Virus record (IMG/VR): IMGVR_UViG_3300035556_000130
Location: 6,281-70,280 of that record
Length of the DNA: 64,000 nt
From: a virus
Lineage: Duplodnaviria > Caudoviricetes
Reading direction: 5' to 3' (one strand)
Position 1 is the stretch's first letter; every line of letters starts with the position of its first letter. The position numbers and the translations under genes were made by a program. The notes beneath the pieces are model-generated. The model did no database searches. It was not told the origin of the DNA and was given only the letters and a program-made list of their open reading frames with translations. Positions 5,469 through 64,000 of the stretch are shown piece by piece.

Positions 5469-8400
5469 TTAAGCCTCCCTGTATAGTGCAATTAGTTCTT
5501 TCACATCGTCCGCTACAAAAGCCCAGTTACCGGTTATTTTCGGGGTTGCTTCTGCTTTTGCGGTGGTTGCCAGTTCGGTGTTGCTTCTAGCAATTGCATA
5601 TGCATAGACGATGTGATCCGGAGTAATCGCCTCGATGCCGCCCATGGCATCTACAAATCGTACTGCTCTCGATTTGGTATCGTCTGGAGTGGTGTCCTGA
5701 TATAGGGTAACTGATTTGCGAGCGATGCTGCCGCTATACACTTGCACTGGCAGAGTATATGGTTTGTAGCCATCCTTTTTGATGGTTATCGTATGAATAC
5801 CGGCTTCAACACTGATTATTTCATCGGTTGAGCCGATTCTTTCAGTGCCTTCATACACATCTGCATTCAATCCGGCGGCGTCTATGAAGATGCCAGTTTC
5901 GCCCGTTGACTTGGAATATGTTGATCCGCCACTTCTGCCGCTGGAATACCCTCCGCTTCCACCACCGCCGCCACCACCAGAGGTCTTGCTGCCACTTCCC
6001 CGCCAGGTTTGATTATAATTTTCATCATTGGCAAGGAATGCCTCAATGTCGGTGCTGCCACTGTTGATAAATTCTGCATATTTCCCAGTGTCAATGGTGT
6101 ATTCACTGCCGTCAGACGTCGTTTTCTTCTGATCGATATCATATTGCCCAGTTAGTGGATTCAGCAACTTTCCACTTTGAATTATGCCCGTGGTGTGCGG
6201 GTAACCGGTGTCATCGATCCACGAGACGGTGGTTCCAGTCGCGGTTACTTTAAAGTTTGCTGGGTTGTTTTGTCTGGCGGTAAAGATTGCAGCCTGCTCT
6301 GCTGGCATATATTGTTCTATACGAGCATTGTCGTCAACCAGACCACTTGCCTTATATTCTTTTATTTTGGCAGCAAGAACAACCGGATCAGATATTGCAG
6401 CCAGCTCATTGCTTATCGTTTTGCTTACAGCCTCTTTTTGAAAGATTGCGGTTATTTGGGCGGGCGTCATATCCGGATATGCGGACTCCAATTTTTTCAT
6501 GTTTATACTGCCGTCCGCATTGGTAAAGATAGCTCTCCAGACAATCGCGTCCTGCGGCTGTGATCCGTTATACTGAGCATATCGAGATACTGCATCAATG
6601 CTTGTTGGAGCTACACCCAACACCGCTCTCTGTTGAGGGGTTAACCCATCCATAGTTATTACAGGCGACGTGCTGCCTACGGTGGTTAACGATTTTACTG
6701 TTCCATCAGGCATCATTTGTCCAATGATTGCAGACGGATCTTTTACATCGCTTCCTTTTATTACATGCCCTTGTTGATCGACGTAATAGTTGTCTGGGGT
6801 GATTACTGGTCCTGTTGCAGGTTCGGCTGTAATATTTGCCTTGGCATTCATATATGCCTGGTTAGCAAGTTCTGATTCGGCTCCTCCTTTTACCAGCTGG
6901 TTATATGCACTTGTAAATTCTTTTGTGAGGGTGTCCTTAGCGCCCTGGTTTCCAGCGGCAATCATATGACCAAGACCAACAGCAATAGCCTCATTTGGAT
7001 CGGTGATTCCGAGACCCTTTGCAATCATGTTGTTGGGACCTACGCTACCATCGTCCTGCATATCATATATGCGGCGAACCAGGTCCCCGTTGCAGAATGC
7101 TATTGTTTCTGGATGCAGTGCCCAGTACTGCGGACGCTCTGATTCGGGCCTTATGTGGCCCCAACAACCTTCTCCAACGCTATCGCATCCTTCATCTTTG
7201 ACCCATACCCCTGCTCGTTCAAGTTTACCAAGTTTATCGGCTATCTGACCCAATGCTGCCCAGTCCATGAACCATTTGAAGCCATCTGGTGCAGGAAACA
7301 CATTGCGTGCAAATGGAACATTGTCAAGGAACCAATCGAATGGAGCCAATTTTTCCTTTATTGAATTTATTGCAGGTATGCCTATTGCATTCATCTGCTC
7401 TGCAAACATGTCCTCTGGAACGTTGTATCCGGTCAACTGGATCAACGACTGAACACCTTCTTCTGCGGCAAAGTATATGAAGAGAGCACTGTTTGCAACT
7501 GCCCACCCACCAATTAGGCTCCCAGTTATTTTGAATTTGTTTCTGTAAGCCCATCTAGCAACTGCGCCAGCTGATCCCAGTACTGATCCACGTATAAACT
7601 TGGTGAACTTATCCATCGGCAGAATTTCCCTGATCTGGGCAAGCGTTTCAAGATCGTCCGGCGTTATGATTCTCTTTGAATAAAATGCCTCTATGAATTC
7701 TTTCTGCTTGCCGGACAGAGAATTGTAGTTCGGATGCGCTTTGATGTCAGATATTATCGCATCCTGGCCAGCTCTTTGATATCGCTGCCCCACCACTGGG
7801 TCAACATCGTAGACCTTGTTGAATGCCTCATCTGCAAATGCTTCATCCTTCAATGCGGCTCTAACATCTGGATCTTCCAACAACTTCCGAAGTTCGTCTG
7901 ACTTATTCGCCATGCTGGAATCCAGTATATTGTCAAGCTTCAACCGCCCTAGATCAGCTCCAACCGATACTCCTTCATATGCCTTAGCATTATCTACGAT
8001 TCTGGTGACTTGCTGGTAATCGTTCTGATTGAGTTGCCGGGTCATCGCCTTGCGAATATATTCCTGGTCAGTTGCTGACATTTTGGCTCGGGTAGCGTCG
8101 TCTATGCGGCTTACGGCTCCCTGGTAATGGAATCCCATAATCTTTTCAGCTGCTGATCGATCACTGCCGAGTTTTTCAGAGATTGCCATTGCCAGACTTT
8201 CAGCCTCTTCTCTGGAGGTGTTTCGGAGGTATGCTTTGAGATCATCGCTCTTGGCAAGTGCTTCATCCAGAGCTGCCCTGCCATCCCTGACAGAAAGCCC
8301 ATCTAACTGACGGATGAGATCATCTACGGTGGTTTGACCATTGATTATCTGATTTCCTCGGGCCTGCTGGACATTTCTGGAGTCGTACACCTCTTGATTC

Positions 8401-11400
8401 AGTCGGCGGGCACGATTCTTTAATGCATCCACCTGGGCTTTCAGACCATCGATTTGAGACTTGATACCAGCCTTTTCTCTGGCGGGAGCTGCTTCCAGTT
8501 TGCTGCCAAGCTCCTGTATCTGCCGGCCAAGGTCGGACAGTTCATCCTCAACGGCAATTCTTTCTGCGGTTTTTGCTGCAACTGCGCGCTGAGCTTCCTG
8601 GTATTCTGAGGCAAGACTCTCGGGGGTTATCGCGTCAGGTGCTGTTTCTGGGGTCCGGGTGCTCGGGGTTTCTTCAGGTACTTTGATGCTTGGTGTTTCA
8701 GTTGGTACTACTTCTGGTGTTATTTCTGGGGATTTCCGAACATCATCTACCATCTTGGCTCTGGTTTCATCCAGATACTTGGTGAGGTATTGCAGATCTT
8801 CGTCCGGTATGCCTCGAATGAGCGCTTGCACATTTGGATCATCAACCAGGGCTTTGAAGGTGTCTGCATCCAATCGTTGCAAATCAATGCCAGACATTTC
8901 ACCAATTCGAACAGCATCTTTTTCGACAACTTCAACCGTGCGGCCAATCTGGAAAGCATTGGATTTGTCGGCTTCCCTAACCGTGGACCATAGGATACCA
9001 TCTTCGGTCAGCAAATCGATCTTGACAAAATCTTTGGTCATATCAAAATCGAGTCCACCAGACTCTGTTAATCCTTTCCAGACGGCTTCATCTGCTGCAT
9101 ATGGGTCAGCCTTGCTGATAGCTACTATTTTGCTTCCAGAAGCGTTTTCTGGTACTCGAAAATCAGTTGGAACATTAACTGGTTTCTCCCAGAAGAACAT
9201 CTTAACCGGAGTTGAAGCAACATTCATTGCTTCGTCGGCAGAGAACACGATATCGTTCTTTCGAATGAACTGAAATTCACCCTCTGGGGAGCGTACTGCC
9301 CAACCATCCATTTTTTTGAACTTGTGCGGGGCTGCTTGCCATCCATTGGCACCTGTGATGGCATGTCCATCTTGGAGTGCTTTTTCGAATGCTTTTGCAA
9401 GGGATGCTTTGGTGGGCCCTTTTGTCCCGGTGACTACCAGAATGTCACTATACTTGCTGTTTCCTAGTATAAGCTCTGCCATGCTAAAATCAGCATTTTC
9501 ATCCAACCAGGATGCCGGCATCTGAGAAATTAGTTCTTTGGCTGATTTTAAGGATTCTACGATTTTGTTCCAAGCGAGTGTTGCTTTTGCAGTCCAGGTT
9601 GCCTTTATAGCGTTAAACTTTTCCAGCAAGTTGGGTGTAGTTGTGGGTTCGCCTATGAAGTATCTGATTTCATCCATGATCACATCCTGGTCTGCTTTGG
9701 ACGCCTCCTTGAACTCGTTAAACTGCAAAAAGTCATCCATATTTGCTTCTGCTTTTGCCTGATGAACAATGATCTCTTTTTCAGGCCCGAGATTGGAACT
9801 CTTGATATCTGCGTCACTCAAATTTTTTATACTATCTTTTGATGCGGTGACATGGTTCTGGAACTCCGATAGAGGCATCATATTGATAGGGGCATCTCCA
9901 ACTGCCTCGTCAAATGCTATTCTTGCAGCATCGCTCATTTGGGATCGCAGATATTGAATCCTCGCAATCTCGGTTTCCGTTAGTATCTCGCCATTCTTGG
10001 CTTTGGCCAGGAGGCTTACATCTCCAGATTGTGCAAACTGTCCGAAATCAGCTGTCTGTGTAAATCTGGTCCATGCGTCAGCAACTCCCTCAACTCCTCC
10101 TTCTCTGGCGGCCAACGATGCGATCATATCATTGTACAAAGTAGACAACTCTGACTGAGTTGGGGCGACGTATGATGGAACATATTCAGTCGGCGTCGTG
10201 GTAGTCGGAGTTGTGATAGTCGGCGTAGTGGTGGTTGGTGTAGTTGCCGCAAGCCTGTCTGATAGATACTTGCCGTATTCTTCGGGAGTTTGCCGAACAT
10301 TGGTGTAGGGATTCAGAATTTCAAAGGTTCCATCCTTGTTTCGGAAATAGTAATATCCACCCTCGCTGTTCCAGATTGGAGCCTCCTCTGCTTCCATCAG
10401 TTTATCAAATTGTTCCTTGGAAAGCCAGTTTCCGGTTTGAGGGTCCATGTATTGGACTTCCTGTGTTACGGAATTGGTTCTGGTTCTGGCATTGTTTTTG
10501 GTTTCGTCAATCCCGTAGGTATAGGTTGGATTGTTTCGTGCAATGGCTGCTCTTTCGGCATCTAGATCTGCTTTTGAAACCCAATTACCTGCTGAATCTT
10601 GATAAACTTTTGACCCATCTTTGTTAAGTTTTGTATAGGTGTTAAGCTCAGCATCGTACTTTGGAGACCTATCGGCGGTTCTCTTCAGTACCAGTTCCTC
10701 GTATTCGGTGGTGGATAGAATGTTGCCAGTTTCGGGGTCTTTTACTTGCCAGGTCTTGCCATTATCCAGGGATCGCAGTTCAGTCCCCCAGTTTTGATTA
10801 TATGCCCACTGGCTTACATCTTGGCCCGTGACAATGCTTCCTCCGGTGGCGTCGTCCACGTACCCTCCACCGCCTCCAATTGGACCAGCGTCACCCATTT
10901 CGCCGCCGTATCCATCGGGCCCGCCAAGCATTTCGTCCGAGACGGATGTCGGAGCATGGCTTCCTGTTCCTTGGTATTGTTCGGGCAGTGATTTGAGACG
11001 GGCGTCCCATTCTGTTGCCAGGGCCAACGCATCGTCGTTTGTGGTTATTGGCCGGGTTGTAACAACATCCTGCACATTTCCAAAGTCATCTGTGTAGGTA
11101 ATTTGCCAGGTATCTACTGAGCCTGGTCTGGATACCTTGGTGATGATTGGATTTCCAGATTCATCGACCGTTAGGGCTACTTTTTTAGCAGGAACATAGT
11201 CCTTGTGCACCTGGTAATAGTTGCCTTTGCCATCAATGTCTACCAAGTATTTTCCGTCAGTGGTTTCCATTACCCCGGTTTCACGAACTTTTGCAATGGT
11301 GAACCGGTTACCAACTGGATCAACTACGTCGAACGGTTTGAACCCTTCATCCAGTATTGTGCCTTTTTTCATGTCAAAGAATTTGGTCTCGGTTGCAGCG

Positions 11401-14400
11401 CCAGTCCGAGTTCCTGCAAAGCTGATAGTTTTTTCAGATGAAGCTCCAATGGGCTTCAATCCTTCGTTTCTGGCAGCAAGTGTCTCGGCAGTTATGGGTT
11501 CAGATGTCACCGATCTGGTTAATCCCGTGGTGTCTCGCGCCGTTGCAGCTGCTTTTGCGTCTGTCGGAGTAGCCAGCAATCCACCCTTTACATCTGCGGC
11601 TCGAATGCCAACACCTGGAGCTGTTGGGCTCACAGCTGTCTCAGCTGCCTTTGCAACGGGTATGATGGGTTTACCAGTTACAGTTTCCTTGATAACCGGT
11701 ACCGGGGTCTTGGTAGCCGCGATTTCAACTGCCTGTTTTCCGTCCTTTGAAAGTTCAAATGCTCGACCATCCAGTGTTTCGAGTCGGATTATATCGGGAT
11801 TAGTCGCACCTGCTCCAACTTTGCCGATCAGTTCCGTCCCGCGATATGCATCAACCGTGCCATCAGCAGCCTTAACCAGTTTCAGAGTGTCTATCAGGTC
11901 TCCCCCTTTGGACACAAGACGTATTGGGGACACCCCGATTGTTAATGGTAAAAATATCGCTGCGTTGACACTTTTGTTTGGCGTAAGTGGGCCTAGTACA
12001 GACTCAGCAACGGCCAGTGTCTGGGCCGAGCTATATGGCATGAGTTCATGCCCAGCAGCCGAGGTTGGCAGAAAAGCAAGTGCCGTTCCAAATCCTCTTT
12101 CTTTTTCCATGCCATCGACGTACTTCTTTTCAGCCGGTGTCATGGCTTTGTCGAGAGTTTGCTTATATTCCGTTGATCCTAATTTCGTTTCCAAGACAGG
12201 CTGCATAATGGTATCTGTTGATGCTCCAAGTATCAGTCTTGGATTATTTTTTGCTATTTCTGCAACGGTGTTTTTATCAGCATATGTGAGAGCATTTTTG
12301 AATATTTCATACTGATTTAACCCGCCAACTGTCGGAACGTCTTTAAGGGATGCTCCGGGTTTTGCAAGGTCTTTTGCAATGCTGTTTAATTGGATAAGAC
12401 CCTGTACAGTGGGCTGTACTTGATACCCGTTTTCGTATCCCTCTCCCATCAATTCCATATATGGTTTTTTAGATAACCAATCAGCATATCCCCATGGATC
12501 TTCTGTTTTATCTGGAATTTGTGCTTTGGTGAGTGGTTTCAAGGTGAACATTCCAGAATCGGCTGCTCTCATGTCTGGAACTTGGAAAACAGTTCCGATT
12601 TCGGTCAATATATTGTCTACCCACCCGGTCGATGGTTTTGTGTAGGTGCCGACATCTAAAGTGGCTGCTCTATTTAAAATATCCGTACCAAGATCACCAA
12701 TTTCGTTATCACTGAGTCCTAAATATGCGGTTTTTCGGTACGACCATTCGTTGACTGGGACTGATTGCCCGGTGCTGTCTTTTACAGTTTTGTACGGTTC
12801 CACGGTAAACAAGCCACTGTCGGACATAGCTGCATTGGGTACGGAACTTTGCATTCCGATTTTGACTTTGCCATCGTTTGATGCATATATTCCCATTTTA
12901 CCGCTAGCCAAAGAATCGGCAATCTGTTTATCTAGATATCCAGTGGATTTCAGTGCTTGGTATATAGTCGGGTCCAGGTGTACTACTCTACCCTCGACAG
13001 AACCCTTCACAGCAACTGCTCCGGCTGGCTTTGACACAGATGTTGGGGCAGGTGTAGATGCAACTGGAGCTGGTTTGGTGTACTCCGAATAGCCTCCTTT
13101 AGCAAATTCGGACTTCGTAAGCTTTGATCCGGGTACAATATTTCCAGAGGGTGTTACATATGTCTTGTTGATGTCCAATTCTGAACCCGTTTTGCTGGAA
13201 ACTGTGGTGGTATTTGTAGTTGCAGCCTTTGGCTTGGCTTCGGCAGTTGCCCCTGTTCCAAACAGCTTTTTTACGGCATCATTATAAATACCCGAGAGAC
13301 TCTTGCTAAGCCCAGAGAATATTCCGGTATCCACTTCTTTGGTCTCTGATCTGGCCCCGGCACCGCCGCCGACCTTTGCGGCAGCAGTTGACGGCGTAGC
13401 CCCAACGCTCTGCTTGGTGGTGGCTGATACGGTTTTCGTTTCCGGTGCAGCCGTAGCAGGTTTGGCAGCATATTTTCCAATTCCTCGTCTGGCATCCTCT
13501 GCATCATCTCCAGTGGTTACTTTGCTCCAATCTTCAACCTGAATTGATGGCAGGAGGTCTTGCCGTATTGATGCTAATTTGGTATAATCAACAACCCCGC
13601 CTTTAGTATATGGTTTCAAGGCATCATTGATAGCACCCATGCGCTCGGCAACCGTGGCTGCTGGTGCTTTATCGGGATACAGTTGAGAATATATTGCGCT
13701 TGCGACAGAACTTGCCGATTGCCCAGGCGATATTTTTATAGCGTTGAGCTTGGTTGCTGTTTGAACAGCATTATCAGCCACGACCTTGTTTCCAGTCAGC
13801 ATCTGCTTAATATTGTCGGATATATTCAATTTGGCACGTTGCGCGGCCTGGTCAGCGGCATTTCCTATTTCTAAAATCTTGCTTACACTTTTATCCGAAA
13901 CAGATTTTAGATCAGTCGCCGTTTTTACAGTATTTGCTTTGTTAAATTCGTTGTTGGCTACCCTTAGCAAATTATTCAGTGCTGTATTTGAAAGTGTATA
14001 TAGAGCTGCTTTCTCAGTATCTATTTTCTTAACGGCGGTCTGGGTTGCCTGGTCTGCCACCTTATTAACGGCGTTCAGAATAGTATTGGTCGTCTGTTTA
14101 AGGCTATCAGTGTTACCGGTTTTGAGAGAATTTTTTAATGCAGCCTCGACTTTACTGCTCACATCAATCGATGTTGGAGCCTTGGTTGCAGATGTCAGAG
14201 CCTGATTAAACCTGTTGGTATTTTCCAATAGGCTATTGGCGACGGCAGCTACCTTCGCGGCGGGTGCCGTTTCTATTTCATCAAGTGGGACAGGCTTGAC
14301 ATTTATGGAAGGAGGTGTCACCAGTTCTGTCGCTTGTTTCATAGCTTCTGATATAGCCAGCGTTTCCTGGAGCGAATATCTTGTTGGTGTAAGCGGGGTG

Positions 14401-14903
14401 TAGGTTATGGTTTTTACTGGAGCGGGGGTCGATAATTTATCTACCACCCCTTGAACACCTCCTTTAAGTGTGCCTCCAACTACGCCCACCTTGGAACCCA
14501 ATCCTGCCGCGGGTGCTGGAGCTGACAATGGCTTCAGTCCCACGTTTCGGGAGGCCAGCGTCTCGGGTGATATAGGTACATTTACGCCGCTTGTTAGTGA
14601 CGCCTGTATTGCTTGTGCTGGGGTCACAGTCGTTGTTTTGGGATAAAACTCTAATCGAATTTCTTTTTCGTATGACGGCTGCGACGCAGGTGTAGATTTT
14701 ATAAACTCGGTTATTGATGGCGCGGGAGCTGGGGCTGCTTTTGCCTGCGTTACAGGGGCCATCATTTTTTCCAACGTACTCAGTTTTGCAGCAGCCGATG
14801 ACGAGGAGCTGCTGGACTTGGCCGGTGTTGTGGTAGTCTTTCCGCTGCTCCCGCCAAGGCTCACGGTGGCGGGTTTTGATGAAGAACCTAGTTTAACTGC
14901 CAT
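5469..14903 (-). CDS. Giant protein of about 3,145 aa, probably virion-associated; low-complexity N-terminus, coiled coils, one hydrophobic segment, C-terminal PEGA domain
   Basis: 9.4-kb open frame; PEGA-like VEAGIHTITIKKDGYKPYTLPVQV; hydrophobic ITGSLIGGWAVANSALFIYFAA; start ATG 14903 or GTG 14912. Confidence 0.85.
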   Translation of the reverse strand: MAVKLGSSSKPATVSLGGSSGKTTTTPAKSSSSSSSAAAKLSTLEKMMAPVTQAKAAPAPAPSITEFIKSTPASQPSYEKEIRLEFYPKTTTVTPAQAIQASLTSGVNVPISPETLASRNVGLKPLSAPAPAAGLGSKVGVVGGTLKGGVQGVVDKLSTPAPVKTITYTPLTPTRYSLQETLAISEAMKQATELVTPPSINVKPVPLDEIETAPAAKVAAVANSLLENTNRFNQALTSATKAPTSIDVSSKVEAALKNSLKTGNTDSLKQTTNTILNAVNKVADQATQTAVKKIDTEKAALYTLSNTALNNLLRVANNEFNKANTVKTATDLKSVSDKSVSKILEIGNAADQAAQRAKLNISDNIKQMLTGNKVVADNAVQTATKLNAIKISPGQSASSVASAIYSQLYPDKAPAATVAERMGAINDALKPYTKGGVVDYTKLASIRQDLLPSIQVEDWSKVTTGDDAEDARRGIGKYAAKPATAAPETKTVSATTKQSVGATPSTAAAKVGGGAGARSETKEVDTGIFSGLSKSLSGIYNDAVKKLFGTGATAEAKPKAATTNTTTVSSKTGSELDINKTYVTPSGNIVPGSKLTKSEFAKGGYSEYTKPAPVASTPAPTSVSKPAGAVAVKGSVEGRVVHLDPTIYQALKSTGYLDKQIADSLASGKMGIYASNDGKVKIGMQSSVPNAAMSDSGLFTVEPYKTVKDSTGQSVPVNEWSYRKTAYLGLSDNEIGDLGTDILNRAATLDVGTYTKPSTGWVDNILTEIGTVFQVPDMRAADSGMFTLKPLTKAQIPDKTEDPWGYADWLSKKPYMELMGEGYENGYQVQPTVQGLIQLNSIAKDLAKPGASLKDVPTVGGLNQYEIFKNALTYADKNTVAEIAKNNPRLILGASTDTIMQPVLETKLGSTEYKQTLDKAMTPAEKKYVDGMEKERGFGTALAFLPTSAAGHELMPYSSAQTLAVAESVLGPLTPNKSVNAAIFLPLTIGVSPIRLVSKGGDLIDTLKLVKAADGTVDAYRGTELIGKVGAGATNPDIIRLETLDGRAFELSKDGKQAVEIAATKTPVPVIKETVTGKPIIPVAKAAETAVSPTAPGVGIRAADVKGGLLATPTDAKAAATARDTTGLTRSVTSEPITAETLAARNEGLKPIGASSEKTISFAGTRTGAATETKFFDMKKGTILDEGFKPFDVVDPVGNRFTIAKVRETGVMETTDGKYLVDIDGKGNYYQVHKDYVPAKKVALTVDESGNPIITKVSRPGSVDTWQITYTDDFGNVQDVVTTRPITTNDDALALATEWDARLKSLPEQYQGTGSHAPTSVSDEMLGGPDGYGGEMGDAGPIGGGGGYVDDATGGSIVTGQDVSQWAYNQNWGTELRSLDNGKTWQVKDPETGNILSTTEYEELVLKRTADRSPKYDAELNTYTKLNKDGSKVYQDSAGNWVSKADLDAERAAIARNNPTYTYGIDETKNNARTRTNSVTQEVQYMDPQTGNWLSKEQFDKLMEAEEAPIWNSEGGYYYFRNKDGTFEILNPYTNVRQTPEEYGKYLSDRLAATTPTTTTPTITTPTTTTPTEYVPSYVAPTQSELSTLYNDMIASLAAREGGVEGVADAWTRFTQTADFGQFAQSGDVSLLAKAKNGEILTETEIARIQYLRSQMSDAARIAFDEAVGDAPINMMPLSEFQNHVTASKDSIKNLSDADIKSSNLGPEKEIIVHQAKAEANMDDFLQFNEFKEASKADQDVIMDEIRYFIGEPTTTPNLLEKFNAIKATWTAKATLAWNKIVESLKSAKELISQMPASWLDENADFSMAELILGNSKYSDILVVTGTKGPTKASLAKAFEKALQDGHAITGANGWQAAPHKFKKMDGWAVRSPEGEFQFIRKNDIVFSADEAMNVASTPVKMFFWEKPVNVPTDFRVPENASGSKIVAISKADPYAADEAVWKGLTESGGLDFDMTKDFVKIDLLTEDGILWSTVREADKSNAFQIGRTVEVVEKDAVRIGEMSGIDLQRLDADTFKALVDDPNVQALIRGIPDEDLQYLTKYLDETRAKMVDDVRKSPEITPEVVPTETPSIKVPEETPSTRTPETAPDAITPESLASEYQEAQRAVAAKTAERIAVEDELSDLGRQIQELGSKLEAAPAREKAGIKSQIDGLKAQVDALKNRARRLNQEVYDSRNVQQARGNQIINGQTTVDDLIRQLDGLSVRDGRAALDEALAKSDDLKAYLRNTSREEAESLAMAISEKLGSDRSAAEKIMGFHYQGAVSRIDDATRAKMSATDQEYIRKAMTRQLNQNDYQQVTRIVDNAKAYEGVSVGADLGRLKLDNILDSSMANKSDELRKLLEDPDVRAALKDEAFADEAFNKVYDVDPVVGQRYQRAGQDAIISDIKAHPNYNSLSGKQKEFIEAFYSKRIITPDDLETLAQIREILPMDKFTKFIRGSVLGSAGAVARWAYRNKFKITGSLIGGWAVANSALFIYFAAEEGVQSLIQLTGYNVPEDMFAEQMNAIGIPAINSIKEKLAPFDWFLDNVPFARNVFPAPDGFKWFMDWAALGQIADKLGKLERAGVWVKDEGCDSVGEGCWGHIRPESERPQYWALHPETIAFCNGDLVRRIYDMQDDGSVGPNNMIAKGLGITDPNEAIAVGLGHMIAAGNQGAKDTLTKEFTSAYNQLVKGGAESELANQAYMNAKANITAEPATGPVITPDNYYVDQQGHVIKGSDVKDPSAIIGQMMPDGTVKSLTTVGSTSPVITMDGLTPQQRAVLGVAPTSIDAVSRYAQYNGSQPQDAIVWRAIFTNADGSINMKKLESAYPDMTPAQITAIFQKEAVSKTISNELAAISDPVVLAAKIKEYKASGLVDDNARIEQYMPAEQAAIFTARQNNPANFKVTATGTTVSWIDDTGYPHTTGIIQSGKLLNPLTGQYDIDQKKTTSDGSEYTIDTGKYAEFINSGSTDIEAFLANDENYNQTWRGSGSKTSGGGGGGGSGGYSSGRSGGSTYSKSTGETGIFIDAAGLNADVYEGTERIGSTDEIISVEAGIHTITIKKDGYKPYTLPVQVYSGSIARKSVTLYQDTTPDDTKSRAVRFVDAMGGIEAITPDHIVYAYAIARSNTELATTAKAEATPKITGNWAFVADDVKELIALYREA

Positions 14904-14930
14904 TACTGTCACGACCGCTCCGGGGTGTAG

Positions 14931-22557: not shown

Positions 22558-23748
22558 ATGAAAAACATGGTTAAAGGCTTTGGAAGAATGACTTTGAATT
22601 TTAAGTATCCATTCTCAGTAGTGGGTACTACAGCCGGAGCATCCATCCAGTGTGGGGATGACCCTGCATATGTTTGGGAGCACGGCCTGGAAAGATATAG
22701 CAAGCCCTGGGAAGTAGCACCCGACATGGTAGCCGAACTTGAAGGTATTGAGGTTGTCGGCGGAGTGGACGCATTCGGAAGGCGCGTACCAATTAAGCGA
22801 ATAGTACCAGTGATTGCCGGAAACGATATCGGGGAGAACATATCTATAAATGAGCACATGGCTCCTGCCCTGAGAGACGGGCCAAACGATCCCAGCTATC
22901 CATTCAGAGACCGTCTGGCATGCATAAACTTCGGCAAGGCCTTGCTTATGGGCGGCGGCGCAAACACGACTTCGATCAAATTGAGTCCTTCTGACACGCT
23001 CAATTTCAAAATCGAGTTTCCAACCGTCGCGCATGGCGGAGATGCAGTAATAAATTCTGACATCGAAATCAAGGCTCACCTGGCATTCGCGAAGGGCGAA
23101 GATCAGATGCTGAATGCTCTGAGATCATCCCCAGTTGCCGAAGTCGCGACAGCTGCGGCCAACAATCAGATCAGGCAGTACGAAGTCCTTGGCGACCTGG
23201 AAATCTCTGATGTTATTACCCCGCAGGTAATAGATAAGTCCGTTCCTGCAACCATGGATTGGTGGTCCAGTCTGAACATGGGCCTGAATGCAGACGATCC
23301 CCAGATAAAGAGGATTATTACCTACACCAAGAATAACCAGGCAACAACCCCCAATCAGGAGATGGAACTGGTTAGAGATGGTCAGTATGTGCAGGTTCCA
23401 TTCCAGAACTTCCGCTGGGTAGCAACCGACAAGAAGTTTTATCGGTTCACGCATGTAGGAGTTATCCCCCATGCCAACATGTTCCAGGTCAAGTTTGACA
23501 ATGGAAACAGCAGATTCCCCATGATCTTCAACTGCGAGCCCAATGACAATCCCTTTGTCATGCCGCAGCAGAGCCTGGTGGCCGATATCAGACGCGGTGG
23601 GCCTACTGAGCTACCAAGAGCATACACCCTGATGAAGGGCATAGGATCTGTGAAGGTAACCGATAACGGGGTATCAATCCCTGCATGGGCTGCCGGTGTC
23701 AGAGGCTTCGAAATTGCCCTTTGGGGATATGAGTACACTTTGCAGTAG
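22558..23748 (+). CDS. Candidate major capsid protein, double jelly-roll-like
   Basis: 396 aa, beta-rich, AT-rich promoter upstream, heads a run of structural genes; NNQATTPN / THVGV / TDNGVSIPA motifs recalled from euryarchaeal tailless-virus capsid proteins; not verified by search. Confidence 0.5.
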   Translation: MKNMVKGFGRMTLNFKYPFSVVGTTAGASIQCGDDPAYVWEHGLERYSKPWEVAPDMVAELEGIEVVGGVDAFGRRVPIKRIVPVIAGNDIGENISINEHMAPALRDGPNDPSYPFRDRLACINFGKALLMGGGANTTSIKLSPSDTLNFKIEFPTVAHGGDAVINSDIEIKAHLAFAKGEDQMLNALRSSPVAEVATAAANNQIRQYEVLGDLEISDVITPQVIDKSVPATMDWWSSLNMGLNADDPQIKRIITYTKNNQATTPNQEMELVRDGQYVQVPFQNFRWVATDKKFYRFTHVGVIPHANMFQVKFDNGNSRFPMIFNCEPNDNPFVMPQQSLVADIRRGGPTELPRAYTLMKGIGSVKVTDNGVSIPAWAAGVRGFEIALWGYEYTLQ

Positions 23749-33502: not shown

Positions 33503-33934
33503 CTATACCCCGAGGTACTTTATCAGATTGGTTTCATGAATTGGGACCCAGTAACTGCCCATCTTTTCAGCTATCGGGAAGGATACCGGATCATTCATCC
33601 ACTCTGGATCAGCCTTGGTCTTGGATCTGGTTGCGCGGTCACCCTTGAAATAATGCAGTTTGACATGGACGACTCGTTCATTCCTCTTGACGATAACCTT
33701 TCTTCTACCAGCTTCCCGGAGGATAATGTCTTTGATACCTCTGTTTGCAGCCTTCAGAGCAGCCTGCCGGGGTGCCCTCCCGGTGTATCGTCCGACATCA
33801 TTTCCATCCATGCTCATCAATATAAAGTTTCTCTTCTCGACTCCCTCTATAGGCTTCTTTGCCACGGGTGCCTTCTTTACCGGCTGCTTCTTGGCAGCCG
33901 CCTTCTTTGCGCTCTTAATTTTTTTCATTTTCAA
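33503..33934 (-). CDS. mc1: MC1-family chromosomal protein with Lys/Ala/Pro-rich N-terminal extension
   Basis: KRNFIL..DGNDVGRYTGRAPRQAALKAANRG..DIILRE.G...DPEWM matches the MC1 signature. Confidence 0.9.
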   Translation of the reverse strand: MKMKKIKSAKKAAAKKQPVKKAPVAKKPIEGVEKRNFILMSMDGNDVGRYTGRAPRQAALKAANRGIKDIILREAGRRKVIVKRNERVVHVKLHYFKGDRATRSKTKADPEWMNDPVSFPIAEKMGSYWVPIHETNLIKYLGV

Positions 33935-35406
33935 ACCTCGTTCAACCAGTTTTTGATCATCGCCCCATGCTCGGGGGTGATTTTGATATTTGGGCTATCC
34001 TCAAAAACCATTGTTCGGTCTTTGGTAACCCGCGCCACGTGGGTATCTGCATCAACTTCTAATGCAATTGATACCTCATATTCGATACCCTCCCTAAAGA
34101 TTGGCCCCATGCCCATCTTTTTGGGAGTCATTCCTCGCTCCCCATGGACCAGCTCATACTGGGTCTTGGCCCGCGTGGTTAAGATCACATGCATGTTGCA
34201 GGCCAGGATTTTTTCGATCAGCTTGGCGTGCAAGGGTGTTATGTCTTTCCAGGCGGTATAGGAGTTGCCGGTCCTGCTCGCAGCTGTGGCAGCAGCGTGC
34301 ATATCCAGCAATCCGCCTTCAGCAGTCCAGGCATGCGTCAAAGAGTCCAGAATCAAAACCTTCGCGCCAGCTTTTTCAGCCAGGTCTATGGCCTCCAAGT
34401 ACCTCTTTGGCGAATACGGCGCATCGAGAACGATGGTTTTATATTGCCCTATTTTTATTTTGTCAACCTTTCGGCCAACATACAGCGATCCAGATCGGTG
34501 CTCCGTGTCCACGATAAAAATCTTGGACCAGTCTGGTTCTAGACCATATCCTAGCAGGAGAGCTCCCAGTGTCTTGCCAGCCCCAGCCGGAGCAGATATG
34601 AGAATCTTGATAAATGCCATCTGACGACTGGCGTCCTCAATCTTCAGCTCACTGGAGACTGGCACTTTTTTAACAGGGGCCGCGACCGGAGGTTTGGTGA
34701 TTGGAACAGTTGCCGAAGGTTGTTTGGCTGACTCCCCGTTGAGGATGCGTATATAACCCGTCACGTCGGAAATTATTGTCCCGTTGGCAAGAACCTCCAC
34801 GGTGCCAAATTCCCCGCTCATGACTAAATGCTCAAGGTTCTCTTCGATCACTTCAAGACCACGCTTCTTTCCCCGAAGCTTCATTAGCTTGTAGCATTCC
34901 GGAAGAACCTTGCCGGTTTTATCGCATTCTGGCCGGATATCCGGCAATTCTTCCTCTTCAGGGGGGGCCGGCTCGATAGGCGCGTCGGGCGGATCATTGG
35001 ACTGTGCCTTCTTCGCGCGTTCGGCATCCTCTGCCGCTTTTGTGCCCCTGGGAGCTCTTCTGGGTTCTGTGGCTTCCTTTTCAACCGGCAATTCGGTCTT
35101 TTCTGTTTTTGCCGGGCGACCTGGTTTCTTCTTAGGTGGCTCTGGTTCTTCCTTGTTGGCCTCTTCCAAAGCAGCCCTAAGATAGCCGGAAAAGTGTCGG
35201 CGGATCTTGGAAAGCCTCATTATCTGGTCATCGTCGGTCTCATCGAGAGGTTCTACTCTCCTGAGATTTGCTATTCCATCCTCTGATTCTTCGAGGACTA
35301 TTGTGCCGTCATCGGTTACGAACGTTGCAGAGGTATCCGTGAACTCTACTGCAATTTCGAATTCCGCCCCGTATTTTCGCACAATGTCAACTAACGTATC
35401 TCTCAT
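33931..35406 (-). CDS. AAA_24 / Sak4-like recombination ATPase with a long N-terminal extension
   Basis: APAGAGKT Walker A, IFIVDTEHRS, LILDSLTHAW..EGG, HVILTTRAK..Y, GIEYE. Confidence 0.85.
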   Translation of the reverse strand: MRDTLVDIVRKYGAEFEIAVEFTDTSATFVTDDGTIVLEESEDGIANLRRVEPLDETDDDQIMRLSKIRRHFSGYLRAALEEANKEEPEPPKKKPGRPAKTEKTELPVEKEATEPRRAPRGTKAAEDAERAKKAQSNDPPDAPIEPAPPEEEELPDIRPECDKTGKVLPECYKLMKLRGKKRGLEVIEENLEHLVMSGEFGTVEVLANGTIISDVTGYIRILNGESAKQPSATVPITKPPVAAPVKKVPVSSELKIEDASRQMAFIKILISAPAGAGKTLGALLLGYGLEPDWSKIFIVDTEHRSGSLYVGRKVDKIKIGQYKTIVLDAPYSPKRYLEAIDLAEKAGAKVLILDSLTHAWTAEGGLLDMHAAATAASRTGNSYTAWKDITPLHAKLIEKILACNMHVILTTRAKTQYELVHGERGMTPKKMGMGPIFREGIEYEVSIALEVDADTHVARVTKDRTMVFEDSPNIKITPEHGAMIKNWLNEV

Positions 35407-53777: not shown

Positions 53778-55096
53778 GTCAACTACCACGCCCTGAAGGA
53801 CGTGGCTTGCGACTACGTAAAAAGTCGTGTCGCGTCTGGCGGGCTGACATTACCACCCTGAGACTCAAGGATATACCTTAAGTCTCGTGTTCGGTGCTCG
53901 ATATTCATTGCACCAACTCTATCAGCATGGGTCTCATAACTGCATTTTTCGCATCGAAATGCTATGCCATTTCGGTTATTTCGGCTGATGTGGTTACATC
54001 TTGGGCAGGTTTGGGAAGTAAATTCAGGATTCACGTAGACTACGGTTATCCCGGCTTCTTTGGCTTTGTATTCCACAAAACCTTGTAGTTGCCTGAATGC
54101 CCAACTACTATGCTCATACCTGAACTCTTTGGAGATTTTGTTTTCCGTTCTCTTCCTGATGCCCGTCAAATCTTCCATGCCGATTACCGAAACGCCGTTA
54201 TCTATAGCAAATTCTATGAGATCCTTGGATACCTTATGGTTGATGGCGGTCATGAACCGTGTCTCTCGACCCGCGAGATTCCTAAGAAGTCTCATACTGG
54301 ATTGAGTGCCCAAATATCGACCGCCTGCCTTCTGTAATCTCTGGCGTTCTTTAGATCGAATGTTTCGGTAATTCTTGATTTCACCGCCTGCAAAGAATTT
54401 GCATTGCTTGTCTGTGGTGGATGCAACGGCTAGACAATTAATACCGACATCAACACCCATGAAATTGGATGCATCAACCATATCCTTGTCTGGAATATCC
54501 TTCTCGCAGGCCAAATGGAAATAATAAGCTCCGTCTTTGTGTAAACAGAGATTGGATGCCAGATATTTCCAAGACCCGTCTAAGTATCTCTGAGCATATT
54601 GGTAATTCAAGAATTTGTATCTCTTGCGCCCCGCCAATGTAGTTATGCTCAAGGTGTCTCCAGATATACCAAAATCGCGTCCAAACGAAAATGTAGCGGA
54701 GGTTGGATCGAAATCAAGGAGTTGCCATTCCGATTCTTTCTTGTCAATCTGACTCTGAAGTGTTTTGTAAACTCCAGAAACCCGGCGAGCTACATTACAA
54801 GCCATCTGAGATTTCAGGTTAAGACTGTTCCGTAGATGCTTGTATGTGGCTTTTTGGATCTGTCCGCTTCCAATCGGCTTGCCGATGTCAAACACGATTT
54901 GCGAGGCATAATTCATGCCTTGGGAAAATGCTTTCAGCAGCTCTGCTAGGTCATTATCCGGTGTATCCAATTTCAGGATAATGGTCTTTGTGAGCTGCAT
55001 GATTAAGTATATTCACCCACTGCTATATAAGGTTATCGTCGGTGAAGATGTTTGTACGCGCTCCTCCCCACCGTGAACGATGGGGACTCCGCGCTT
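53778..55096 (-). mobile_element. IS200/IS605-family element carrying only tnpB (IS1341-like)
   Basis: Left hairpin CCCCATCG/CGGTGGGG+AGGAGCG near 55059-55085; right end GCAAGCCACGTCCTTCAGGGCGTGGTAGTTGAC ending at 53778; no tnpA. Confidence 0.85.
53813..55000 (-). CDS. tnpB: TnpB RNA-guided nuclease
   Basis: RuvC I MGVDVG, RuvC II IGMEDL, YTSQ-like FTSQTCPRC, Zn finger CEKC, RuvC III HADRVGAMNI; catalytic residues intact. Confidence 0.95.
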   Translation of the reverse strand: MQLTKTIILKLDTPDNDLAELLKAFSQGMNYASQIVFDIGKPIGSGQIQKATYKHLRNSLNLKSQMACNVARRVSGVYKTLQSQIDKKESEWQLLDFDPTSATFSFGRDFGISGDTLSITTLAGRKRYKFLNYQYAQRYLDGSWKYLASNLCLHKDGAYYFHLACEKDIPDKDMVDASNFMGVDVGINCLAVASTTDKQCKFFAGGEIKNYRNIRSKERQRLQKAGGRYLGTQSSMRLLRNLAGRETRFMTAINHKVSKDLIEFAIDNGVSVIGMEDLTGIRKRTENKISKEFRYEHSSWAFRQLQGFVEYKAKEAGITVVYVNPEFTSQTCPRCNHISRNNRNGIAFRCEKCSYETHADRVGAMNIEHRTRDLRYILESQGGNVSPPDATRLFT

Positions 55097-62143: not shown

Positions 62144-62413
62144 GTGATTTTCATGACCTACAGAGTCTATTCCACCAAATCCTGCCCCAAATGCGAGCAG
62201 CTCAAAGCAGCTCTTGTCAAGGCGGGCATCGCTTTTGAGAACATCGATATGGGCACTCCCGAGGCTCTCACCGAGCTGCGCATAAACGGGGTGTTTGCAT
62301 TGTCTGCTCCTGTTCTTCAGATAGACGATAATTTTTATACTATTGATGACCTTTTTAACAGCCAAGGTGATTTAAACGAGAATCATATTGTACCCGGTAA
62401 ACCTGGCAACTGA
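62144..62413 (+). CDS. Glutaredoxin/NrdH-like protein
   Basis: YSTKSCPKCEQLK...APVLQID. Confidence 0.85.
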   Translation: MIFMTYRVYSTKSCPKCEQLKAALVKAGIAFENIDMGTPEALTELRINGVFALSAPVLQIDDNFYTIDDLFNSQGDLNENHIVPGKPGN

Positions 62414-62518
62414 GTCAACTCTTGGTGATATCAAAACCACGATTGAGACGTTGCAATCGGACAATGCGGCCATGAAAGCAGACATTGCAGCTATCAAAGC
62501 CATTCTGGAGAGCTGAGT

Positions 62519-63670
62519 ATGGGATTTTTGAATCGATTACCGGCAAGGCAAGATGCATATTATAGCCGGAACAGAATGTGGAAAAATCGTGGTAATTCCA
62601 CAGCAGCCGACAGGAGAACTCTGGTCAGCCCATCACATCTACTAGTAAACATTGGCGGGGCTGGTCCGCACGCGTATGAGCTTGAAGCCGCTGTAGAAAT
62701 GGATCTGAATGTGTCAGCTAATTGGGATACGTTGACACCAGATTACACAGTTGCGGCAAATCGAGCCGGCAAGGACTTCTATGTCTATGCCTGCGTCCCT
62801 GTGAGCGGTTATGCACCCGACCTGATCCTTTCTGCCGCGACAACGTTTCCAGCTGGCTATACGGCAGACAACTCAAGAAAGATCGGCGGGTTCCACTGTG
62901 AATGTGCGGATGTGGGCACAATCTCCGGTCATCCTCTCACCGGCTACCTGGCGGGAGATATCATTCCCAGGTCTTGCTGGGACCTTTCCCATAGGTCAGC
63001 CGGCGCACAGGCCGGGATGGTTTGGGCTGGAAAGACAGATTTCGACAGCCTAGCAGGACCTAAGATTTGGGTCGCCCTCTACCTGGCATCTGGCACCGGA
63101 TCGAGCACGGTTTCCGCCAACGGAGCTCCGATCTCAGATAATCGCAATTGGATGGATTTCGCGGACGACTTCGCCGCGATCGGTTGCAGGATGCTTGAAG
63201 ACGACGAGTTCCAGGCTATAGCCGCTGGCAGCAACGAAGAAACCAACATTGCCGGATCTGTCGATCTCGGTATCACTGGTGGCCATATCGACACGGCTGG
63301 CAGGCGAATGATCAGCAACATTGGCTGCGAGGACTGCTGTGGTGTAATGTGGCAGTGGCTCAGGACTCAAAGCTATCGGTTCGACGGAGCAACGAACCAT
63401 ACTCACCAGGTAGCGGTGTCCGGCGATCCGGAAACCGTGACCTCGGGCAACCCCTCTAACGATGTCGCTCAGGTATTCGCATACTACGATCTGCCAGGCG
63501 CGAAGGGCAGCATCTACAAGCAAGGAACCTACGGCGATATCAAGCTGCTCGCGGGCGGTTCTTGGACGACTGCTACGTATTCGGGTTCCCGGTCGCGGTC
63601 TGCGATTTACGGCTATCGCTGGCGCATTATTTCGTATATCGGCGGCCGCTCTTGCGCGGAGCTTGCGTAG
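62519..63670 (+). CDS. mtd: DGR target protein, Mtd-like receptor-binding protein (C-type lectin fold)
   Basis: Colinear with Bordetella phage Mtd motifs: KDFYVYAC, PAGYTADNSRKIGGFH, SCWDL, EFQAIAAGSNE, GVMWQW, LLAGGSW...SGSR; variable region at the C-terminus. Confidence 0.9.
   Translation: MGFLNRLPARQDAYYSRNRMWKNRGNSTAADRRTLVSPSHLLVNIGGAGPHAYELEAAVEMDLNVSANWDTLTPDYTVAANRAGKDFYVYACVPVSGYAPDLILSAATTFPAGYTADNSRKIGGFHCECADVGTISGHPLTGYLAGDIIPRSCWDLSHRSAGAQAGMVWAGKTDFDSLAGPKIWVALYLASGTGSSTVSANGAPISDNRNWMDFADDFAAIGCRMLEDDEFQAIAAGSNEETNIAGSVDLGITGGHIDTAGRRMISNIGCEDCCGVMWQWLRTQSYRFDGATNHTHQVAVSGDPETVTSGNPSNDVAQVFAYYDLPGAKGSIYKQGTYGDIKLLAGGSWTTATYSGSRSRSAIYGYRWRIISYIGGRSCAELA
63544..63660 (+). repeat. 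DGR variable repeat (VR)
   Basis: 117-bp gapless match to 63732-63848 with 23 mismatches, all opposite TR adenines. Confidence 0.97.
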
Positions 63671-63731
63671 TCGGAGGTCGGAAGTCGAGAATTATGGTAA
63701 CAACATCTGTTACGGGTTGGGTGGGTCTTAC

Positions 63732-63848
63732 GCTGCTCGCGGGCAGTAATTGGACGAATGCTACGAATTCAGGTTCCCAGTCACGGAATGCGAATAACAG
63801 CTATCACTGGAACATTAATTCGAATATCAGCAGCCGCACTTGCACAGA
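63732..63848 (+). ncRNA. DGR template repeat (TR)
   Basis: 35 adenines, rich in AAT/AAC codons; invariant non-A positions relative to VR. Confidence 0.95.
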
Positions 63849-63975
63849 TCCAGGAAAATGCGGAGAGCAACTCCTGGCTGGACTCGCTAACCTTGTCTTA
63901 GAACAGGCAAAACACACAACGGAGGAGATGGGCAGCTAGTACCTGGCGGGAACGTTGCCTATCTCAAAAATCAAC

Positions 63976-64000
63976 ATGAAACGTCACGGCTGCCTTTTCG
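63976..64000 (+). CDS. Start of the DGR reverse transcriptase (truncated by the window)
   Basis: ATG AAA CGT CAC GGC TGC CTT TTC = MKRHGCLF, like the MKRxGNL(F/Y) N-terminus of DGR RTs, 127 nt after TR. Confidence 0.65.

Follow-up and report, generated by a model that had tools for sequence, protein, structure and literature searches.

Diversity-generating retroelements (DGRs) in viruses are regarded as a device by which tailed phages vary their tail fibres. In a global census their viral targets are described as tail proteins (PMC8144416), and in a survey of the reverse transcriptases (RTs) in IMG/VR, 74,665 of the 74,729 RT-encoding viruses were classed as Caudoviricetes, the few RTs of Varidnaviria lying outside the DGR clade (PMC13681634). 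In the DGR of Bordetella phage BPP-1, with the order mtd and its variable repeat (VR), avd, template repeat (TR), Sp and brt, the primer is provided by the Sp RNA, which is located between TR and brt and has a brt-adjacent stem-loop that binds the RT (bRT) and is essential (bioRxiv 10.1101/2023.10.23.563531). The first DGR of an archaeal virus, that of ANMV-1, was described together with terL, tail-fibre genes and Avd (PMC4372165). Viruses of ANME-1 with a double jelly-roll (DJR) capsid protein, the Chaacviridae and Ixchelviridae, have genomes of around 10 kb (PMC9894754). The DGR considered here lies at the 3′ end of a stretch of 64,000 nt (the window; G000:C1:6281-70280) that is part of a 70,280-bp IMG/VR virus record, G000. 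Its order is target with VR, a short gap containing a hairpin, TR, structured spacer RNA, RT and a 95-aa open reading frame (ORF). The explanation that accounts well for the whole, and which is considered likely, is a genuine DGR in a large, tailless-type virus of the methanogen Methanothrix.

The repeats, the target and the spacer RNA

The VR (63544-63660; this and the other features of the cassette are on the + strand) comprises codons 343-381 of the 383-aa target ORF (62519-63670; the JGI call starts at M20 and gives 364 aa). It aligns without gaps over 117 nt with the TR (63732-63848), from which it is separated by 71 nt. All 23 mismatches are at TR adenines (11 A to G, 8 A to T and 4 A to C), so that 23 of the 35 adenines in the TR are changed and no other nucleotide differs; the probability of all 23 falling on A by chance is 5.9e-16 (hypergeometric). 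The VR is in frame at the 3′ end of the target, and the substitutions are mainly in codon positions 1 and 2. There are nine AAY codons in the TR when read in the VR frame, and with 24 variable codons the number of possible peptide variants is about 2.6e18. A search of the whole of G000 found no second VR. The same cassette, with VR/TR mismatches confined to A, is present on dozens of IMG/VR contigs.

The 3′ boundary of the VR is GC-rich (63645-63668, ...GCGCGGAGC...) and differs from the end of the TR (...GCACAGATCCAGGAAAA). In all relatives the VR ends ...GCGCGGAGCC(C/G)GC, and each of the two end motifs is conserved (12 relatives). By analogy with the sites for initiation of mutagenic homing of BPP-1, IMH and IMH*, they may function as an IMH/IMH*-like pair. 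The last two A-to-G differences, at 63656 and 63658, are G in the VR of 12 of the 12 relatives examined and probably belong to this fixed boundary rather than to mutagenesis, and about 21 mutagenic changes therefore remain.

The protein carrying the VR matches the Pfam family mtd_2nd (PF21916) with an E value of 3.4e-18 (66.4 bits, against a cut-off of 24.6). A phmmer search of PDB returns BPP-1 Mtd (1yu0-1yu4, E about 1e-8) for residues 70-294, and a second, weak stretch (residues 321-361, E 74 alone) reaches the variable region of Mtd itself. With phrog_11262, annotated 'tail protein', the match is at E 9e-46. Judged by these matches, the target is a homologue of the Bordetella phage protein and a putative receptor-binding protein. 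Directly upstream of it (62144-62516) are a glutaredoxin-like ORF of 89 aa and then, in another frame, a 42-aa coiled-coil ORF. In relatives the same coiled coil forms the C-terminus of 128-230-aa proteins that precede the Mtd-like gene, and the 42-aa ORF may be what truncation or a frameshift has left of an adaptor or fibre protein.

The RT ORF starts at 63976, reaches the end of the window at 64000 and continues in frame through the 119-bp terminal repeat (G000:C1:95-982) to give a protein of 295 aa. It matches RVT_1 of Pfam, its best PDB match is BPP-1 bRT (8ub7, E 4.8e-46), and it has IGNYTSQ as motif 4 ([ILV]GxxxSQ) and YCDD as the YxDD motif; these features identify it as a DGR-type RT that is closest to bRT. 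The initial annotation, which was made from the letters of the window, had proposed a DGR signature with an Mtd-like target and an RT-like start at 63976. The signature is borne out by the A-only mismatches, the Mtd matches and the type of RT, which now extends over the terminal repeat to its full length, and the repeat coordinates, the ungapped 117-bp alignment, the 23 A-only differences and the in-frame VR were all reproduced exactly.

The 127 nt between TR and RT (63849-63975) are strongly conserved in sequence, with helices at 63851-63876 and 63893-63910 and a long stem at 63925-63965. RNAalifold applied to 13 relatives gives 23 pairs in the spacer, 14 of them with compensatory changes; paired cells make up 94.8% (35-52% in slid controls), and the observed values were reached by 0 of 500 shuffles. 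The spacer is a conserved structured RNA, supported by covariation. Its long stem is placed as is the bRT-binding stem-loop of BPP-1, and a priming role similar to that of the BPP-1 spacer can be envisaged. No Rfam family was found in the cassette. The shorter gap between VR and TR contains, between the target stop codon and the TR, a hairpin, GTAACA-N5-TGTTAC (63697-63713), that is present in close relatives and has compensatory variants in L018 and L023; RNAalifold gave no consensus structure for the gap across more distant relatives, and support for the hairpin is accordingly weak. Directly 3′ of the target stop (63671-63691) GTCGGAR is repeated three times in tandem, with two to three copies kept in close relatives; possible roles are those of a target-site element and of a terminator.

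No match to Avd (a PF05635-like four-helix bundle) was found among the ORFs or in six frames, and the gap between VR and TR is too short, at 71 nt, to have room for avd; the cassette is therefore not strictly of BPP-1 type. Just beyond the window end, however, a 95-aa ORF (G000:C1:975-1262) overlaps the RT stop and is followed by an 87-aa ORF (G000:C1:1259-1522). The overlap, of 2-20 nt, is present in 15 of 15 relatives examined, with identities as low as 42%, and the 95-aa ORF is translationally coupled to the RT. The 87-aa ORF follows in most relatives. Beside the RT, the former is found in 43 related loci and the latter in 28, and in a related genome, G001, both are deleted along with the RT. 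Searches of Pfam and PDB gave no match for the family of either. The 95-aa protein, which is conserved and non-helical-looking, is a candidate accessory factor and a possible replacement for Avd. This architecture, Avd-less and with a 95-aa partner that is conserved, is relevant to the question of which DGR parts are essential.

If the BPP-1 paradigm applies, the RNA of the TR and spacer would be reverse transcribed with misincorporation opposite adenines, and the resulting cDNA would replace the VR. The 24 codons thereby recoded would be in the C-terminal, ligand-binding part of the Mtd-like protein, and the recoding could change the host surface structure that is bound by the virion.

Activity of the lineage and decay of the RT

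Activity is clear for the lineage taken as a whole, and sister genomes with a full-length RT are diversifying. The contigs L008 and L009 have an identical TR and an identical full-length RT, and yet their VRs differ at 18 sites, 18 of 18 being at TR adenines. The RT of the present genome is not full-length. It has a 37-aa in-frame deletion between motif 3 and motif 4 (IGxxxSQ), whereas all of the 14 aligned relatives (40-84% identity), and bRT, have 33-37 more residues between ...KFYPS and IGNYTSQ. What is missing is the equivalent of bRT residues ~148-180, and the deletion junction is at a CGAT microhomology. The deletion allele is real and not an assembly error, since 13 or more contigs, of JGI and ENA origin, carry it; 8 JGI contigs encode exactly the 295-aa RT, and further JGI and ENA contigs encode forms with a single substitution.

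It is given a little better than an even chance that this copy of the RT is crippled and that the VR has stayed frozen as earlier activity left it. The conservation of the deleted segment in every aligned relative and in bRT argues for it, as does the recurrent loss of the RT in the family (see below). Among assembled consensus sequences, 12 or more contigs of precisely this lineage share one and the same target sequence, VR included, and on one contig there is a substitution elsewhere in the target. The initial annotation had called the switch recently active, and had looked to population variation in the VR for its confirmation. For the lineage the description holds, given the A-only VR differences between L008 and L009; for the copy in this genome it is in doubt, in view of the RT deletion and of a VR that shows, among the assembled consensus sequences of those 12 or more contigs, no variation. 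The identity of the VR on these contigs was also considered as proof of a dead DGR, and this was withdrawn; the deleted RT also occurs together with other TR/VR cassettes, the background being mosaic.

The competing explanation, to which a substantial chance somewhat short of even is assigned, is that the DGR of this genome is fully active, either because the RT tolerates the deletion or because co-infecting relatives with a full-length RT complement it in trans. Several observations speak for this and so count against a crippled RT. The deleted RT has an open frame and persists over many assemblies, its allele being widespread with point changes only scattered, and it keeps all catalytic and template-contacting residues (D139, I147/G148, Q153 and D181/D182, the counterparts of bRT D138, I181/G182, Q187 and D215/D216). 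A full-length-RT relative, L009, and the deletion-carrying L129 are present in one sample, 3300035488. Two contigs that both have the deleted RT, L127 and L129, have an identical spacer and differ at only 3 positions in 3.3 kb of backbone (99.9% identical), but their VRs differ at 21 sites, of which 17 are at TR adenines and 3 mirror differences in their own TRs, as though each VR had been written from its own TR. The TRs of this pair, however, diverge by 3.5% against 0.09% for the backbone, which points to cassette recombination, needed in any case. A deleted RT that is still working or is complemented in trans, and recombination of the cassette, are equally good explanations for the VR difference.

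Comparison of L129:1-1300 with window positions 63075-63980 shows 97.7-100% identity from the TR 3′ end onward, but a different TR and VR and a target that is only 79% identical; the shift in identity at the TR 3′ end therefore marks a recombination boundary at the TR/spacer junction.

Related genomes differ in what they have kept of the cassette. It is intact in G005, while G001 (L090/L132) retains half of the target and a 61-nt fragment of the RT. The complete genome G003 (L089, G003:C1:52589-56780) has the Mtd-like gene with its VR and is without TR or RT, and G002 and G004 have nothing. RT decay thus recurs in this virus family, and the series from intact through RT-deleted and RT remnant to target only offers a natural view of DGR decay.

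Host and virion type

G000 has a direct terminal repeat of 119 bp at its ends and is rated 100% complete by CheckV; it is a complete genome of 70.3 kb, circular or circularly permuted. It encodes PolB, PrimPol, a helicase and a protein of 3,147 aa. The host is identified from genes that the virus carries. A TnpB/IS605 OrfB element (53813-55000, − strand; Pfam match) is 82-90% identical to multi-copy elements confined to Methanothrix/Methanotrichaceae genomes, the next matches being at most 42% identical, and the Methanosarcinia signatures MC1 and DUF1699 are also encoded. Together these point to Methanothrix, which narrows an earlier proposal of a virus of Methanosarcinales/Methanotrichales. 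Methanothrix, which has a resistant protein sheath, is among the major acetoclastic producers of methane, and we know of no cultured virus that infects it. For the viruses of sheathed archaea, head-tailed or icosahedral types have been reported (PMC11576556).

The candidate major capsid protein, with a predicted double jelly-roll fold, is a 396-aa protein encoded at 22558-23748 (+ strand). Its similarity to Atlas clusters carrying PRD1 P3 domains served as a lead only. A profile search gave 60 relatives, and the AlphaFold2 model made from a 47-sequence alignment has a pLDDT of 93.3 and a pTM of 0.92 (a first fold, from a 12-sequence alignment, reached pLDDT 45 and was discarded). The best PDB matches of this model in Foldseek are the DJR capsid proteins of SGIV, PM2 (P2), PRD1 (P3), PBCV-1 and STIV (E 4e-5 to 6e-4, TM about 0.3). 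In VIA-align, PRD1 P3 scores Z 10.0 (248 aa, root mean square deviation 4.5) and the STIV capsid protein Z 9.5 (240 aa, 4.2), followed by PBCV-1 (Z 7.8), PM2 (Z 7.6) and, at about 7-8, Faustovirus, phiCjT23 and FLiP. By sequence the family has no match in Pfam or PDB, and there is no paralogy of the 396-aa protein with the neighbouring 362-aa and 257-aa proteins. Terminase, portal, HK97 capsid and tail families gave no match in the ~90 ORFs with Pfam and PHROGs, searches that could miss divergent versions of HK97, portal or terminase. A tailless DJR virus, with the modelled 396-aa protein serving as its capsid, is considered very likely. An earlier guess of a jelly-roll, apparently tailless virus thus gains the backing of a confident capsid prediction and of searches that found no tailed-virus hallmark.

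The alternative is a tailed virus (Caudoviricetes) whose HK97 capsid protein, portal and terminase are too divergent to be recognised, and in which the DJR protein is, for instance, a carbohydrate-active enzyme or a decoration protein. Three DUF2961-type enzymes or proteins align with the model over the same full-length span at Z 9.7-10.4, and the best match of all (Z 10.4) is a cellular enzyme of this type, tied with PRD1 P3; the Foldseek and VIA lists, however, consist mostly of capsid proteins of tailless viruses, aligned over the full length of the model. The family of the target is annotated as a tail protein and the genome has collagen-like and beta-helix fibre or spike genes; the 'tail fibre' matches in G000 stem from collagen repeats and beta-helix domains. 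The Atlas taxon labels of the look-alike clusters are Uroviricota. Against this, tailed-virus hallmarks are missing not only from the ORFs of G000 but also from the contexts of distant members of the capsid family, one of which is on a 64-kb contig with a layout like that of G000, and the 396-aa gene is the most conserved among relatives, at 92-96% identity compared with ~76% for the target. On these grounds a tailed virus is thought unlikely.

An assembly chimera, in which the DGR cassette came from another, tailed virus, is most improbable. The DGR is 30 kb from the structural block and beside the terminal repeat of the contig, where such a join might be suspected, but an identical arrangement was independently assembled on a 70,320-bp contig and on several others, the RT ORF is in frame through the repeat, and in the 75.9-kb G005 an intact DGR shares one molecule with this capsid gene, as the DGR of G000 does.

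For the reading as a whole, that of a genuine DGR in a tailless-type virus, the difficulties lie in what was not recognised. BPP-1 requires Avd, and none was found. Searches with Pfam, PHROG and Walker-A recognised neither a packaging ATPase of the A32 type (FtsK/HerA), whose absence from the results would favour a tailed virus, nor a penton protein, and the tailless assignment therefore rests on one predicted fold together with negative searches. The only P-loop genes in G000 are those for an XPD-like helicase and an AAA_24 protein; the latter kind of domain, AAA_24/Sak4-like, is at the C-terminus of a 491-aa protein (33931-35406, − strand).

Given the double jelly-roll fold predicted for the leading capsid candidate, the Mtd-like protein would probably be carried by a vertex or spike structure rather than by a tail. 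As the target of the DGR it is a concrete handle on virus recognition of the Methanothrix sheath.

The 3,147-aa ORF (5469-14912, − strand) has a C-terminal PEGA domain and SNase and PEGA genes on its flanks; no family could be assigned to it. A PEGA-bearing gene is also beside the capsid block of the distant 64-kb relative, L136, in which a sugar-nucleotide modification cluster (L136:11775-16113; epimerase, DegT aminotransferase, hexapeptide transferase and glycosyltransferase) adjoins the capsid gene.

Comparison with described systems

A double jelly-roll virus with a DGR was nowhere found described in the literature searched, the scope of which did not extend to the methanogen virus compendium of Medvedeva et al. 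2023, and the papers covered report no DGR for PRD1, STIV or the ANME-1 Chaacviridae and Ixchelviridae. The initial annotation had considered the pairing of a DGR with a jelly-roll virus unusual, since viral DGRs are mainly in tailed viruses. The census and the RT survey cited at the outset support this; the jelly-roll side of the pairing depends on a predicted fold. The chances are judged moderately better than even that this is the first documented DGR in a virus with a DJR capsid, and that an Mtd-type module, otherwise a device of tailed phages, has crossed realms, and that a tailless virus of unusual size (70 kb) deploys it at its vertices to keep pace with the sheathed surface of Methanothrix, with a 95-aa RT-coupled helper in place of Avd. 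If so, DGR cassettes and Mtd-type binding modules move between viral realms, and tailless virions use programmed hypervariation in host recognition.

The similarity to the BPP-1 DGR is extensive. The Mtd-homologous targets are of nearly equal length (383 aa here, 381 aa in BPP-1) with the VR in the last ~40 codons, the TR-to-VR differences are A-specific, and the VR has a GC-rich 3′ end distinct from that of the TR. There is a structured spacer of ~127 nt with its long stem adjoining the RT start, and the RT, with IGxxxSQ and YxDD, is nearest to bRT. Unlike BPP-1, no avd was found here, VR and TR are only 71 nt apart and a conserved 95-aa ORF overlaps the RT stop instead; the RT is without the equivalent of bRT residues ~148-180, the host is archaeal, and there is a DJR capsid candidate with no tail genes found.

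With ANMV-1 the shared features are those of an archaeal virus of a methane-cycling host, a target with similarity to Mtd or C-type lectins, a VR/TR of 114-117 nt, A-specific differences and an IMH-like site. The terminase large subunit, flanking tail-fibre genes and Avd ORF of ANMV-1 were not found here, where there is a DJR capsid candidate and the host is Methanothrix and not ANME. In the case of the tailless viruses PRD1, STIV and the ANME-1 Chaacviridae and Ixchelviridae, the likeness is in the predicted DJR capsid protein, which was aligned full length (with PRD1 P3 at Z 10.0 and STIV at Z 9.5). The tailless DJR viruses differ in that no A32-type ATPase was recognised here, and those of ANME-1 in size, ~10 kb compared with 70 kb here, where PolB, PrimPol, a helicase and the 3,147-aa protein are encoded. 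The DGR itself is of a known kind; what is distinctive is that it is set in a large Methanothrix virus of tailless type, that its architecture is Avd-less and that an RT-deletion allele circulates.

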